The position numbers and the translations under genes were made by a program. From Narcine bancroftii (taxonomy: Eukaryota), in assembly GCF_036971445.1 (NCBI RefSeq), contig NC_091476.1, forward strand, positions 92,132,001-92,196,000: a DNA stretch of 64,000 nucleotides, read 5' to 3'. The first letter of the stretch is position 1, and each line of letters begins with the position of its first letter. Of the stretch, positions 1 to 49,225 are shown one piece after another. The notes under the pieces were generated by a model. The model was not told where the DNA came from. It did no database searches and worked only from the letters and a program-made list of their open reading frames with translations.

Positions 1-363
1 TCAGTGATGAAACTTTGTTGAACTAAAAGGCAGCAATTTTGGTAACCCATGTTCTTTACCATAAAGCAACAAGCACCGGGGACATCATTAACAAGCAACT
101 CCAACTCCAGATGAGTTCATGGCTGGCCTCATGAAAATGTGGATGAAATTATGGAAAAATGACACCTCTTTTCCCAAGGAATTGAATGTTGACCATTTTA
201 TACATTCAACACCGTTTGCTTGGACCTTTCACCCCACAACAGCTGTGTTAGTGAAAGACTTAGCCGAAAGCATAGGGTGTGCTTCAAATTAAAACCATTC
301 CGTCACAACCTCCACCTAACCCAGCATGCAGCAGTAAGTAAATGAGGTGAAATGAATACTTAC

Positions 364-375
364 TGAATGGACCAA
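364..375 (-). CDS. ROBO3: 12-nt microexon between Ig3 and Ig4 of the ROBO gene (adds V-G-P-F); positional equivalent of Robo1/2 exon 6b
   Basis: The minus strand reads a long U-tract, then ...ctttgtttcag|TTGGTCCATTCA|gtaagt. The donor is a perfect consensus and a CTGAC branch-like site lies at 420-416. The exon is phase 1/1 and in frame with the upstream exon ending CAC G|. Confidence 0.8.
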
Positions 376-1439
376 CTGAAACAAAGAAAAAAAAAATAAA
401 AAAAATACATGAGATGTCAGGGAAAATTCATGAATGATCTCATACACAATGGTAGCATAAATGTCAGTTTAACAGTGAGAAACCACAGGAAATATTAACT
501 TCAGCCATTGACAAGGGGCAAATGATTTGCGACAGTGGTTAAATCTACCCTGACCACCAAACCAATCAGATCTCTGCTTCTGAGAAATTTTATGCATTTC
601 ATGATAATTTAGCCATAGATTAATTTCAATGTGGTAAGTGCCAAATGCTGCATCAAATCATTGGACCCTGATAGAACATTGGGGAGAAATACACAGTGAT
701 CATTAAGAATTAATTGCTATTACTGTGCAGTGACTCACATTCCTCCTGAATGAAGACATCATCATTTCCTTTTACAAATACATCAATGATATGTTAGCGA
801 CTGCACTTAAAATGCAATGAGCATCTTCTCAAGACGGACTGAGTTTAAATCACTCACGTCTTCGTTGTTCATGAGTAATTGAATTGCCCCCACGATGTGT
901 GGATATTTATTATACCCTTATTACCCTTATTATGACACATTATATTCATAGCACTGCATAAAATAATAATCTAACAAATTTATGCTTTTATAACATTACA
1001 CGTGGAGCAATATTCACCATTTGCAGATTTGTAGGTGTGGTGCGAAACAGGAAGTTGATACCTCTCCCCACCAACTAAGCCAATCACAGCCGACCATCTG
1101 TCTGCATTTCTTTTATATTTTTTTAATCCCCTCTCCATTTGACGCTATTGAGTTTAGACAGGCTATGGTTCTACCAGCATCTGGTCAAGCAGTGGCTTTG
1201 ATCCATTTAACCCTGGACGTTTTCATTCTGAATTGCACTCAATCCTTGCTTGGCCAGCATCAATATGGGATTGGGGAGTGATGGCCAGCATCAATATGGG
1301 GTTGGGGAGTGAATCGTGCCTAGCCACTAATGTTATTGAAACATTTCTACAAGCTGAGAGTTGAGCATGGTGTTAGCCACTTTTAAAGAGCTGCAGCTTT
1401 CCCTGTGATAAGGAACTATTTCAGTTGTCGCGATTTAAA

Positions 1440-2145: not shown

Positions 2146-4139
2146 CAAAAAATATTCTCTTTTGTTTATGGGCTAATTACGTGAACCATCCTGCATTATA
2201 CACCCATGAAATATAACTTAATTGTCCTTGGTAGTTTATTTATTTTGTAGTTTCTCTAATTAGTATTAATCTGGACAAATATATTGTACGTAATGGACAT
2301 TAACTTGGTTCAGGTACTTTTGTAACTCTAATACTTCAATTTTTGGTCTGGTTGGTGTTAATAGTTTGATGTGGGGCCACAAAAACTCACAATGAACTGC
2401 ACCAACCCAAAAGCTATCAAATTCGTCAAATGGTTATGCTTAAGCTATGAGACTACTCAGCTTTTTTGCGAAGGAGATAAGGCACTTTATTTCATCTTCC
2501 TTGACTAATGACTTCTGATAAATATTTCCAAGAGATTGAGTGTAATGGGGAGTGTGAGGTCACAGTAACGGTTCAGACTTGCAGCCCAGAGTTGAAGGAC
2601 TTCAGTCTCACAATGATAAGAACTGAAACTGAATTCAATATAAAAAAAATCAATAAATGATCCTAAATGCTGAGAATTTCTCAGTGCCTTGAAAATTTAA
2701 AATGTTACACCATCCTCTTCAGGCCCGCCAACGTGACTGAAAGGTGTGACTTTTCCATTAATGCTTTCTGGCTCTTAATACCCACTCAAATTGTTCAGCA
2801 AACCGCTCATTGGTGCAAGCGCTTGCCTGATGAGGGAACTAGGCTGGCGAATAAAGGTGGACTTGTGAGATTCATCAGCGTCGCAGGATTTTAACAAAAG
2901 CAAAAAATAATGGAAGCCAATCGACCTGAAGAGTTAAACTCTGCCCTTTTGTCACCAGCCTGATGGCCTCATCTTTGACTCTGTCATTTTGTCTGGTAAT
3001 ACTCTTTGGAAGAGTATAGAGAGGTTAAAGACACTACATAAAGACAATTTATTTGTACCCCCAATATCAGTAAGAATGGAGTCAAATTCTTATAGAACAG
3101 CACTAAATATAGCTCCTCACTTGCCACATAGAGTATATTTGTAATCATTATCTTCTCATTTAATCACTATTGGCTGGTTCATGGGGTGTACTACTGTGAT
3201 TTATGACTAGACTGCTTTTATCAGTGGTTGATAGCAACCCAGACCCCATGGAATATATCCTGCCTGATTGTTTCTGCATTTATCACGATTCAACCATTCC
3301 CACTTCACAGCGCGAGTTTAACACAGATATAATGTGCTTCTCTTTGATCGCCTAGCTCACTCTGTTGTCTGTCTTTTTTACTTGGTTCCCATGTAAACCT
3401 CATCCAAAAATCTAAGATTACAAAGGAGCATCACAACATAAGCCGTCAGAGACCACGAACAGATGTAGAAATCCTGGCAAGTTTAAACTGTTCAGGCCCA
3501 GAGGATATCATACTGATTGCAACACCTCTTATGGAGTTTATTGAGCTCAGAAAATATCACGCATTGAGCTTGGACTGCATGATCCAATTACACTGAGCAA
3601 TACATCTATCATCGAACCAGATAGGCTTACTCCATGGTTACCAACCATTTAAATTCTAGTTGATAAGGCTTAGTTGGCCATTAGTTAATATGGAATCAAC
3701 GTGAGCTTGCAAACCAGTGTGTTTCCTTCCTAAAGGATTTTGAAGACATTTATTTCTGTTGTCGGAAAGCAAATTTACTGAATTCAATAGTATTTGATTG
3801 TGATAGAATTTGAACTCGAGAACTGAGTTTAGTATTCTAATTACGGTAACTATTCACTTGCAAATAGCTCAATAATATTGTTCAGTTTGGAAGTCATTTA
3901 CAATCTTAGGGTCAACCTCACAAACCAACAATGTCCTTCCTTTTCTAGGATGGCTCATTTAATGAAATACTATCACTTCTGAACCCCATTTCAGACATGG
4001 AAACCTTCCCCATTAACTGGGAGCCCTGCAAAAATTCAAGATGTCTCATCACCATCTCAAAGAAACCAGAGAGGGCCAATAAATGCTGAAACCCCAGTCT
4101 CCAGAATAGGAGCCCCTATTCTGAGCAATACCACAGGGA

Positions 4140-5867: not shown

Positions 5868-5995
5868 CGTGTACTGTCAGAGTGCCCGAGAATTCAACTT
5901 TACCCACACTATTTTCTGCAATACAGGTGTATGTTCCTTCATCCTCGCTGTTGACTTGTGCCAACCGCAAACTGTTGTCAGACTGAATCTCAAAC
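5868..5995 (-). CDS. ROBO3: ROBO exon, second half of Ig3 ([43 protein letters not shown]), 128 nt
   Basis: ttcag|G...CAC G|gtaagg. It carries the Ig D-x-G-x-Y-x-C motif. [14 protein letters not shown] and SG.L.VH resemble ROBO3 more than ROBO1/2. Confidence 0.93.
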
Positions 5996-7027: not shown

Positions 7028-7166
7028 CTCTCACGTGGCAGCTCACCCTCCTCCTTGCGCCAACGGGTGGTTGGCACGGGATCACCATGCACCTCGCAAT
7101 GAAAATCCACAGTGTCGTCTGCGAGGACCACCTGATTTACAGGCCGTTTGATGAAGGTGGGCCGTT
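7028..7166 (-). CDS. ROBO3: ROBO exon, first half of Ig3 ([47 protein letters not shown]), 139 nt
   Basis: cccacag|AA CGG...GAG AG|gtacgc. Phases match both neighbouring exons. VNQVVLAD and WRKE.GELP are ROBO3-like. Confidence 0.93.
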
Positions 7167-9950: not shown

Positions 9951-10071
9951 CAAAAACGACCAAGTCTGCCGGCTCACTGTCCCTCTCACCCACCATATTG
10001 GTAGCCACGCAGACGTACATGCCAGCATCAGACTTCCTCGTGTTTGAGATCATCAGCTTTCCTCCTCGGAT
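9951..10071 (-). CDS. ROBO3: ROBO exon, second half of Ig2 ([40 protein letters not shown]), 121 nt; missing from the ORF track
   Basis: ttgttccag|ATC CGA GGA...TTT G|gtaagt, translated by hand. This is the classic Robo Ig2 sequence. Confidence 0.95.
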
Positions 10072-10783: not shown

Positions 10784-10941
10784 CGTGATCCGCTCATCCT
10801 TGTCATTAATGCGGAGATTGTCCTTCTTCCAGGAGATGGTTGGTTCTGGATGTCCTCTTGGTGGGAGGCACTCCATCACAGCAGGCTCCCCAGCTGCAAC
10901 CACAACATCGCTTGGCGCTTGGCGGAAGTCATCACGCAGAA
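10784..10941 (-). CDS. ROBO3: ROBO exon, first half of Ig2 ([52 protein letters not shown]), 158 nt
   Basis: cttccccag|TT CTG CGT...ATC ACG|gtgagt, with the Robo signature PPRGHPEP. Confidence 0.95.
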
Positions 10942-31534: not shown

Positions 31535-32857
31535 AGGAACATAGGAACATAGGAAGTAGGAACAGGAGTAGGCCAAAAATGGCTGATCGAGCCTGCTCTG
31601 CCATTCAATACGATCATGGCTAATCTAATTTATGACCTAACTCCACCTACCTGCCTTCTCCCCATATCCCCTAATTCCTCTATCATGTAAAAATTTATCT
31701 AACCAAATTTTAAATATGTTTAATGAGGCAGCCTCAACCACCTCCCTGGTTAGGGAATTCCAAACATTCGCTACTCTCTGGGAAAAACTATTTTTCCTCA
31801 TCTCTGTCCTAAATCTACTCCCCTGAATCTTGAGACTATGTCCTCTCATTTTAGTTTCCCCGGCCACCTCAAAAAACCTTCCTACATCTATCCTATCCAT
31901 ACCCTTCATAATCCTATATGTTTCTATTAGATCTCCTCTCATTCTTCTGAACTCGAGCGAATACAATCCTAGACGATTTAATCTTTCATCATAAGTCAAC
32001 CCCTTCATCCCAGGGATCAACCTAGTAAACCTCCTCTGGACTGTCTCCAAAGTATATCCTTCCTCAAATATGGAGACCAGAACTGGACACAGTACTCCAG
32101 GTGCGGTCTCACCAGTACCTTATACAGTTGCAACATTACCTCCCTACTCCTGAATTCAATTCCTCTAGCGATGAAGGCCAACATTCCATTTGCCTTCTTA
32201 ATAACTTGCTGCACCTGCAACCTAACTTTTTGCGATTCATGCACAAGCACTCCCAAGTCCCTCTGCACAACAGCATGCTGTAGTTTTTCACCCTTTAAAT
32301 AATATTCAGCTCTTTTATTTTTCTTACCAAAGTGGATAACCTCACACTTACTAACATTGTACTCCAACTGCCAGACCTTTGCCCACTCATCCAGCTTAAC
32401 TATATCCCTCTGCAGACTCTCCACATCCTCATTACAATTTGCTCTTCCACTCAATTTGGTGTCATCCCCAAACTTGGCTACACCAGATTTTGTCCCCTCC
32501 TCCAAGTCATCAATGTAAATGATGAACAGTTGTGGCCTAACACTGACCCCTGCGGCACCCCACTTACCACTCTCTGCCAACCTGAAAAACTTCCATTTAT
32601 CCCGACTCTCTGCCTCCTGTCAGACAACCAATTTTCAATACAGGCCAATATACTTCCCCAGACTCCACTTTTCCTGTAACTTACTGATATGTCTCTTGTG
32701 CAGCACCTTATCAAACGCTTTCTGGAAATCCAAATATACAACATCAACCTGTTCCCCTCTATCCACCGCACCCATTATATCCTCAAAGAATCCTAACAAG
32801 TTTGTCAAACAAGATCTTCCCTTTCTAAAACCATGCTGTGTCTGCCTGATTGAACCC
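31535..32857 (-). mobile_element. CR1 LINE nested in L1 ORF2
   Basis: QHGFRKGRSCLTNL, YLDFQKAFDKV and RPHLEYCVQFWSP, with a (gttcctat)n octamer tail. Confidence 0.92.
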
Positions 32858-46519: not shown

Positions 46520-49225
46520 AGACATTAGGAACTGAAGTAGGCCAATTGGCCCTTCGAGCCAGCACCAGAATTTATTGGATCATGGCTGATCTTTCCCTTT
46601 CAATAACCAATCCCAGCCTTATCCCATAACCCTTAACTCCCCTGCCCACAAGAGCCTTATCCAACTCTCTCTTAAATCTATCCAATGAACCTGCCCCCCA
46701 CTACCCTCTGTGGCAATGTATCCCACAGACCCACAACTCTGGGTAAAAAAATTTCTCCTCATTTCTGTCTTAAATGACCTTCCCTGTATTCTTAAACTTT
46801 GCCCTCTAATCCTAGTCTCACCCATCATTGGGAACTGTGCTCTGATTTCACCCTATCAAGCCCTTTGATAATCATAAATACCTCAATCATGTCTCCCCTC
46901 ATCCTTCTAAACACCATTGCATATAGTCCAAGTCTTTCTAACCTATCCGCATATGACAATCCTGCCATCCCGGGAACTAACTTTGTAAACCTGCACTGCA
47001 CTCCCTCTATAGCAAGTATGTCCTTTCTTAAATATGGGGACCAGAACTGGATGCAATACTCCAGGTGAAGTCTCACCAGGACCCTGTACAACTGCAGGAG
47101 GGCTTCTCTACTCCTATACTCCAATCCCCTCCTTATGAAAGCCAACATACCGTTCGCCTTCTTCACCGCTTGCTGAACTTGAATGCTAGTTTTCAATGAC
47201 TGGTGAACAAGTATACCTTTGCATTACCCCACTCCCTAATTTAACACCATTTAAATAATATTCTGCTCTCTGGTTTCTGCCTCCAAAATGGACAACCTCA
47301 CATTTACTCACATTAAACTTCATCTGCCATCTTTGCACCCATTCCCCTAAACTATCCAAGTCCCCTTGGAATTTCCTGACATCCTCCTCACTCTTTACAT
47401 TCCCACCCAGTTTAGTGTCATCTGCGAATTTGCATATAAAATTATTTATCCCCTCATCCAAATCATTTACACAAATGATAAACAACTGAGGGCCCAACAC
47501 CGACCCTTTCGGGACCCCACTCATCACATCCTGCCATCCAGAAAATGACCTGTTTATCCCAACCCTTTGTTTCCTATTTCTCAACCAATTATCTATCCAT
47601 GACAGAATCCTATCCCCAATACCATGCTCCTTGATTTTGAAAACTAGCCTCCTGTGTGGGACTTTATCAAAGGCTTTCTGAAAGTCCAAGTACACCAAAT
47701 CCACTGACTCTCCCGAGTCCACCCTCCTTGTTACATCCTCGAAAAATTCCAGGAGATGAGTCAAGCAAGATTTTCCTTTAAGGAACCCATGCTGACTAGA
47801 CCTGATACTATTATTCCTTCCTAAGTGTTCTCCTATTTCTCCTTTGATGATGGATTCTAATATCTTCCCCACCACCGACATCAGGCTGACCGGCCTATAA
47901 TTTCCTGTATTCTCTCTCCCTCCCTTCTTAAAAAGTGGTACAAGATCAGCCACTCTCCAGTCTGCAGGCACTTCCCCGGAATCTAAAGAACTTTGGAAAA
48001 TGTCGACTAGTGCTTCCACAATTTCCAGAGCAACCTCTCTAAGCTCCCTGGGATGCAGCCCATCAGGCCCAGGGGACTTATCAGGCCTCAGTTCTAACAA
48101 TTTGCTCACAACCACCTGCTTCTGGATCTGAATATCCACCAAATTCTCTGTTTCCTTCGGTAATTTCACTAAGTCCCTAGGTACTGCTTGACCCCTACCC
48201 CTATTCTGATCATAACCTGTATCCTCCTTGGTGAAAACAGATGCAAAGTAATTGTTAAATTCCTCAGCCAGCTCCATGTCCCCATTGATAATTTCACCTT
48301 TCTCCATTTTCAAGGGCCCAATTTTGGCCCTAACCAATTTCTTCCTTTTAACATATCTGAAGAAGCTTTGGCTATCCCATTTTATATTACTTGCCAATTT
48401 GCCCTCATACTTCATTTTCCCCTCATGAATGACTTTCTGAGTTTCTCTCTGTTGGTTTTTAAAGGCCTCCCAATCCTCTAACCTCCCACTCTGCTTTGCC
48501 ATCTTATACTTATTCCTTTTGGACCTGATACTGCCCTTGATCTCCTTTGTCAGGCACGGCTGCCATTTGCTCTTCGAAGAGCCTTTCCTCCTCTTTGGGA
48601 TGAATCTATTCTGAATCCTGTGAAAAATGTCTAGAAATACCTGCCATTTTTGCCCAGTTGTCCTCCCAGCTAGAATGTCCTTCCATTTTATTTTGGCTAA
48701 CTCCTCCCTCATAGCTGTATAGTCACCCTTATTTAGCTGTAGCACTAATGTTTCTGACTTCCTTCTCTTCTCCCTTTCCATTTGCAGATTAAAAATAATC
48801 ATATTATGGTCACTATTACCTAATGACACCCCTACCTCAAGGTCCCTTATTAACTCCACGTCGTTGCACAGTATCAAGTCCAGAATCGACTTCCCCCGGT
48901 AGGTTCCATCACAAGCTGCTTCAGGAATGTATCTCGGAGACATTCAATAAACTCATTCTCTAGCTTTCCCACACCTACTTGATTTTCCAAGTCCACTTGC
49001 AAGTTGAAGTCACCCATAACGACTGTATCACTACCACTCTGAGTTGCCATTTTTAATTCTTTATTTATACTGATTCCTACATCAGAGCCACTGTTTGGAG
49101 GTCTGTATATAACTCCCATTATGGTTCTTTTGCCTTGCAATTTCTCAACTCTATCCAAACAGACTACTCCACCTGATTCAATGTCTTTCCATCGCCTGAA
49201 TTTAATCCTTCACCAACAGAGCCAC
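46520..49225 (-). mobile_element. CR1 LINE ORF2 (part of the endonuclease and a largely open RT)
   Basis: YRPPN, MGDFN, SDHN, KSPGPDG, NYRPVSL, KAFDKV and FADD, with an open stretch of about 585 codons. Confidence 0.93.

Follow-up and report, generated by a model that had tools for sequence, protein, structure and literature searches.

A 12-nt microexon at the Ig3-Ig4 junction of a ray ROBO3 gene, a probable counterpart of Robo1/2 exon 6b

The stretch of DNA analyzed here, a 64-kb window at G000:C17:92132001-92196000, contains near its start an exon-shaped unit that is read with good confidence as the ROBO3 copy of microexon 6b, likely switched by NOVA, forming a four-residue Ig3-Ig4 spacer predicted to alter signaling strength and not ligand affinity. 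The unit is a cassette microexon of 12 nt at window positions 375 to 364 on the minus strand, reads TTGGTCCATTCA, and lies in phase 1-1 between the Ig3 and Ig4 exons of ROBO3. Its peptide occurs as an insert in the ROBO3 models of other species, and it is almost certainly a real exon. The microexon is deeply conserved in ROBO3 and is already present, although uninterpreted, in automatic annotation.

The microexon is preceded by a polypyrimidine tract and acceptor at 376 to 410 (minus strand), with ttcag at 380 to 376 and a T-rich tract before it, and is followed by the 5' splice site gtaagt at 358 to 363 (minus strand). The strong acceptor, 12-nt in-frame exon, and gtaagt donor described in an initial annotation made from the sequence alone were all found at 375 to 364. 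The flanking introns measure 5,492 and 21,364 nt. At the computed junctions the skipped form reads TVH-VPPQIVVRPRDQ and the included form TVH-VGPFMPPQIVVRPRDQ, so that inclusion converts H-V-PPQ to H-VGPFM-PPQ and keeps the reading frame. The gain of VGPF claimed previously was therefore correct as an in-frame insertion after Ig3 but not in its exact residues, as the net addition is four residues of which the last (M) is built across the junction. Exon 6b of Robo1 and Robo2 was defined as 9 to 12 nt, in frame, at the Ig3-Ig4 junction, and in phase 1, and the ray ROBO3 site has each of these properties, which agrees with the position and phase initially proposed for it. Across both strands of the window, this was the sole site combining at least 17 pyrimidines in 20, a YAG acceptor, a length of 3 to 30 nt, and a strong donor. 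When the donor was loosened to GTRAG over 264 kb, six such sites were obtained, three of them on the gene strand, and GTAAGT was found only in that of the microexon. Separately, the intron upstream of the microexon carries a 31-nt tandem duplication (two copies, 96% alike, window 1251-1312). A long intron farther upstream holds two reverse-transcriptase-like open frames on the minus strand, at 47189-48943 and 32020-32619, which presumably are fragments of LINE reverse transcriptases.

Four further exons of the gene were located on the minus strand of the window and match ROBO3 models: the second half of Ig3 (5868 to 5995, ending in TLTVH plus G and covered by RNA-type contigs), the first half of Ig3 (7028 to 7166), the second half of Ig2 (9951 to 10071), and the first half of Ig2 (10784 to 10941). 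The exon upstream of the microexon thus stops at 5868 in phase 1, and the downstream exon begins at G000:C17:92110999, outside the window. All four Ig exons were present letter for letter in the public ROBO3 models P0196, P0198, and P0201, one of which continues to map across approximately 150 kb downstream. In ectodomain trees, which like all trees reported here were quick searches, the ray gene was placed in the ROBO3 clade, apart from ROBO1 and ROBO2, with SH-aLRT values of 100 and 99, and the ROBO1 and ROBO2 genes of this ray sit separately on contig C16. The gene is ROBO3, as the initial annotation had it, and the case that it had named against itself, a gene grouping with ROBO2 and hence an ordinary exon 6b, failed when checked by tree. 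That the site is a chance AG...GT pair in an AT-rich intron, or exon 6b of ROBO2, was rejected as scarcely conceivable, despite the six sites of similar form per 264 kb and the label "roundabout homolog 2" on some public proteins of the ROBO3 clade, since the predicted peptide is present in the proteins of other species, the gene groups with ROBO3 by tree, and ROBO1 and ROBO2 are both accounted for on C16.

Two observations on naming and neighborhood were made alongside. The proteins P0263, P0269, P0275, P0156, and P0190 are labeled "roundabout homolog 2" or "2-like," yet several such proteins fall in the ROBO3 clade, and this mislabeled set includes a fast-evolving percomorph duplicate that retains the microexon. 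A ROBO4-like gene, which we take from synteny to be ROBO4, faces ROBO3 tail to tail at G000:C17:91817400-91844700 (plus strand; L057-L059). Its Ig2 and Ig3 exons are kept, no match to Ig4 or Ig5 was found ahead of its FN exons, and no convincing microexon candidate was found after its Ig3 exon.

An optional insert was found in the predicted ROBO3 proteins of chimaera, skate, bamboo shark, ray-finned fishes, coelacanth, frogs, lizards, snakes, turtles, and alligators, and the models of many of these species include forms both with and without it. Among the matches listed, in tallies that are not inclusion rates and that lean toward inclusion because the query of one search bore the insert, it was carried by 8/32 chondrichthyan proteins from 3 of 12 species (Callorhinchus, Amblyraja, and Chiloscyllium plagiosum), 13/27 proteins of sturgeon, gar, and bowfin, 20/43 teleost robo3 proteins (VGPF; VGSS in herring and AGRS in pupfish), all 11 copies of the percomorph ROBO3 duplicate labeled "homolog 2," 1 of 2 coelacanth proteins, 7/31 from amphibians, 8/27 from lepidosaurs, 2/11 from turtles (VSPF), and 10/13 from alligators. 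These tallies leave out the eel fragments P0139 and P0142 (without the junction), the opossum fragment P0429 (junction mis-modeled), and the unnamed P0368, P0377, P0404, and P0433. Public predicted isoforms with VGPF(L/M/F), for example, XP_015193160.1 (gar), XP_043532774.1 (bamboo shark), and XP_014456389.3 (alligator), represent the same exon product, but they are unnamed and uninterpreted, and the three ray models considered are without the insert. The insert is also carried by P0161, which derives from a 4,584-base Logan contig and therefore points to a spliced transcript. At the DNA level, a teleost-type robo3 locus (L022, one of 17 loci from a metagenome scan with a bat peptide) was found to contain a 12-nt exon, TCGGCCCATCCA, at 3261-3272, identical to the ray exon at 9/12 positions. 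When its downstream intron was aligned with that of the ray, the score was reached by 0/238 and 4/238 control donor sites. The conservation in other chondrichthyans that had been predicted was therefore observed (in the 3 of 12 species, among the matches listed) and reaches far beyond them. The accompanying view that so small an exon is hidden from gene predictors does not hold generally, as the public models of many nonmammalian vertebrates have the insert.

In the ray itself, the three public models considered (P0196, P0198, and P0201) skip the microexon, and in 4/4 putative-RNA runs, contigs cover the Ig3 exon exactly and extend past it. The 0/3 count could mean that the exon, conserved elsewhere, is silent or rarely used in this species and is a remnant being lost. 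Such decay is improbable in view of the consensus splice sites at the ray site, the intact downstream intronic element, and a peptide that is the same as in skate, bamboo shark, and chimaera.

Matching introns of the two ray paralogues also yielded 12-nt candidates in phase 1 followed by gtaagt, each chosen by donor strength and peptide from eight in-frame candidates. The ROBO1 candidate, TTGGTTCATCTG (VGSS), lies at G000:C16:22471564-22471575 (plus strand; L052), and the ROBO2 candidate, CACACCCAGTTG (AHPV), lies at G000:C16:22801308-22801297 (minus strand; L054). The former is identical to the ROBO3 exon at 8/12 positions (binomial p of about 0.005, uncorrected), the latter at only 4/12, and the ROBO2 peptide AHPV resembles the AYPV of other sharks. 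Mouse Robo1 6b is the 9-nt ttGGGTCTg, and the ray ROBO1 candidate equals that sequence plus one codon and one change. For the ROBO1 candidate, transcript support was absent among five Heptranchias ROBO1 models (0/5). The ROBO2 candidate also contains an internal CAG, 3 nt ahead of the donor, whose use would yield a 3-nt exon. Outside jawed vertebrates, and among the matches listed, one hagfish Robo has an optional four-residue insert, EGSY, in 4/6 proteins and lacks it in the other 2; a second hagfish Robo had no insert in 11 proteins, and none was found in amphioxus (0/1) or acorn worm (0/15). The hagfish Robo genes were not placed in the tree. The accessible text of a microexon study (PMC12626420) describes a 9-nt microexon in zebrafish robo1 (VH-VVS-VPP), which shares its junction and its form as a TT...G phase-1 exon with the ray ROBO3 site but differs in being 9 nt rather than 12 nt and in belonging to robo1.

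A single origin before the split of Robo1, Robo2, and Robo3 appears likely from the 12-nt ROBO1 and ROBO2 candidates, which share intron and phase with the ROBO3 exon, from the 8/12 identity of the ROBO1 candidate, and from the optional hagfish insert. The age that the initial annotation had assigned to the exon, preceding these duplications, is thus supported as likely by the paralogue sites and the hagfish insert. The exon could instead be real but have arisen separately in ROBO1, ROBO2, ROBO3, and hagfish if an Ig-Ig junction tolerates short in-frame inserts. The peptides are indeed unlike (VGPF, ARPV/AYPV, VMS, and EGSY), ROBO2 and ROBO3 agree at just 4 of the 12 positions, and the introns around the three ray paralogue sites did not score above controls when aligned. 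Separate origins nevertheless have little probability, given the intron, phase, and 12-nt length common to the three paralogues, the ROBO1 to ROBO3 identity, the YCAY motifs placed right after the donor in all three, and the amphioxus and acorn worm counts (0/1 and 0/15, among the matches listed). Very probably, then, the ROBO3 microexon shares its origin with Robo1/2 exon 6b; one 12-nt origin in an early vertebrate Robo is likely the simplest reading of the sequences, and the Robo1 copy would have been shortened to 9 nt in bony vertebrates.

The surroundings of the microexon were examined for splicing motifs. Upstream, YCAY motifs begin at 478, 452, 437, 433, and 412 (409 to 478, minus strand) and are candidate NOVA sites with a putative function. 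The exon holds one (CCAT at 370), and the downstream intronic element (325 to 357, minus strand) holds three, at 355, 350, and 345, together with TGCATG at 330-325, presumably an RBFOX site. The motifs therefore cluster on both sides of the exon, with five in the 120 nt upstream, one within it, and three at +7 to +31. The interval 440-321 contains seven, a density reached by 2.2% of the 120-nt windows of the intron. The ray ROBO1, ROBO2, and ROBO3 sites each have two to three YCAY at +7 to +31; at least two in that position were found at 13/240 GTRAG sites, those three included. Locus L022 shares the downstream YCAY cluster and the TGCATG with the ray. In targets of SRRM3/4, the UGC motif lies shortly upstream of the acceptor. 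A UGC upstream of the acceptor is used as the mark of SRRM3/4-type neural microexons in the available text of PMC12626420, and no TGC was present in the last 30 nt upstream of the ray acceptor (L022 has one at -16), so that the ray site is unlike a standard target of this kind.

For exon 6b of Robo1 and Robo2, the accessible part of the work of Johnson, Junge, and Chen (2019, PMC6687390) reports that NOVA binds flanking YCAY and represses the exon, that the form including it is more repulsive, with changed CDC42/RAC1 output and unchanged SLIT2 affinity, and that mouse Robo3 splicing is unaltered in Nova1/2 knockouts. The ray exon resembles 6b, as described there, in being short, in frame, at the Ig3-Ig4 junction, and flanked by YCAY; it begins like mouse Robo1 6b (ttGG...), and in the ROBO3 models of other species inclusion of its counterpart is likewise optional. 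It differs in that 6b is described in that text for Robo1/2 of mammals and chickens, whereas the ray exon belongs to ROBO3, encodes VGPF, and has putative NOVA control (PMC6687390). By analogy, the ROBO3 microexon is reasonably likely to be under NOVA control.

The following mechanism is proposed. An early vertebrate Robo would have acquired a 12-nt exon at its Ig3-Ig4 junction, which ROBO1, ROBO2, and ROBO3 would have inherited, and NOVA, acting through YCAY, would switch the ROBO3 copy in or out. Inclusion of VGPFM may loosen or re-angle Ig1-3 relative to Ig4, and this altered geometry may tune signaling strength with ligand affinity unchanged. As described in the available portion of PMC5807052, ROBO1 Ig1-4 has essentially no interdomain linker, and dimer contacts involve both Ig3 and Ig4. 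The insert is missing from the solved chains of ROBO1 and ROBO2 that were aligned. The accessible text of PMC7083938, in which the auto-inhibitory hairpin is formed by Ig4-FN2 and its flexibility is attributed to FN1 and to linkers elsewhere, counts against the proposed role. Tuning of signaling by the ROBO3 insert is thus a tentative suggestion, drawn from Robo1/2, with slightly more to be said against it than for it. The mouse Robo3.1/Robo3.2 switch, as presented in the text available from PMC12308364 and PMC7083938, is also a case of alternative Robo3 splicing that bears on midline crossing, but it works by retaining an intron, which changes the intracellular tail, and is unrelated to the microexon in position and mechanism.

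In waterfowl, the insert was carried by 0/14 ROBO3 proteins from 11 species among the matches listed; the bird sample consists of waterfowl and does not include chick. A gene model without the insert says little about loss, since 9/12 chondrichthyan species, this ray included, show none among the matches listed. At the junction of two waterfowl proteins (P0306 and P0507), an additional 28 residues start with GK and finish in a pyrimidine-type run. This resembles the read-through of an 84-nt intron, which would be too short for an exon and two introns; the existence of such an intron is implied by the proteins. When metagenomes were scanned for bird intron DNA with a swan protein as the query, 0/600 stretches were confirmed. 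To our knowledge, human and mouse ROBO3 lack the microexon, and among the matches listed the insert was found in 0/4 bat proteins. The microexon was likely lost in mammalian ROBO3, a point tested weakly, on four bat proteins, and was likely lost in waterfowl ROBO3 as well, judging from the protein sequences. As alligators keep the exon, the bird loss would be separate from that of mammals. Loss was initially thought to concern mammalian ROBO3; it is probably not confined to that group, as waterfowl appear to be without the exon (0/14, among the matches listed, with an 84-nt intron implied).

A different account of these absences does without separate losses in birds and mammals: the exon may simply be unannotated there, or their ROBO3 may form one fast lineage with a single loss. 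Gene models do often miss the exon, and the ROBO3 proteins of birds and bats grouped together in two quick trees (95 and 98). Both branches are long, with ROBO3 branch lengths of 0.52 in waterfowl and 0.70 in bats compared with approximately 0.05 to 0.06 in lizard, turtle, and alligator, the bird sequences are skewed, and a grouping of birds with other reptiles was not rejected (p-AU 0.072). Against it there are also the 28-codon read-through in two waterfowl models, which resembles a whole intron, and the reported lack of effect of Nova1/2 knockout on mouse Robo3 splicing (available text of PMC6687390). The account is unlikely, though it retains more weight than the other alternatives considered here; it concerns the pattern of loss only and can be held together with the reading of the ray unit as the ROBO3 copy of exon 6b. 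As an observation on rate, waterfowl ROBO3 (P0304, P0511, P0330, and P0458) diverges nearly as fast as that of bats and has a skewed composition.

Exon loss had initially been associated with the lost Slit binding of mammalian ROBO3. In Ig1, the ray has N-C-K and FFLR, bats and opossum have P-C-R and FFPR, and waterfowl have S-C-K and FFLR, at positions that Zelina is said to have shown in 2014 to govern Slit binding. According to the accessible text of a 2026 preprint (PMC13622297), chick Robo3 seems to retain the two ligands and, like its mammalian counterpart, to prefer the open state; on the masking of zebrafish Robo3 the preprint is inconsistent. The tie is therefore weak, since waterfowl Ig1 is without the mammal-type changes and chick Robo3 reportedly keeps both ligands (PMC13622297), both of which speak against it. 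A wider history is conceivable, though on balance doubtful: an early vertebrate Robo would have gained a 12-nt, NOVA-controlled hinge exon that the three neuronal paralogues inherited; ROBO3 would have retained it in lineages from chimaeras through crocodilians, with independent losses in the bird and mammal lines, whose fast-evolving ROBO3 is reported to favor an open ectodomain; and losing the switch would have contributed, convergently, to the change from a tunable repulsive receptor to a specialized commissural one, as an event distinct from the loss of Slit binding.

No literature on a ROBO3 microexon was found in a search made mostly from listings; subscription papers, bioRxiv supplements, and splicing databases such as VastDB were outside its reach and may list the event. 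A review names 6b for Robo1/2 only, in its accessible text (PMC12308364). The supplement files searched from PMC12626420 contained a robo1 row and no robo3 row, and the supplements of PMC12626424 gave 0 matches for robo. Since the exon is already in automatic annotations, the news lies in its history and not in its existence. What is new is the ray ROBO1 candidate of 12 nt, the insert in a hagfish Robo, and, in waterfowl, a likely second loss, which weakens the suggested connection with Slit binding. Most groups of jawed vertebrates have in ROBO3 a splice switch previously known from Robo1/2 alone, and two fast-evolving lines apparently lack it. The isoform used should accordingly be stated in assays of fish or frog Robo3. 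To the shift of ROBO3 from Slit receptor to mammalian midline-crossing receptor, the microexon adds a discrete, datable change.
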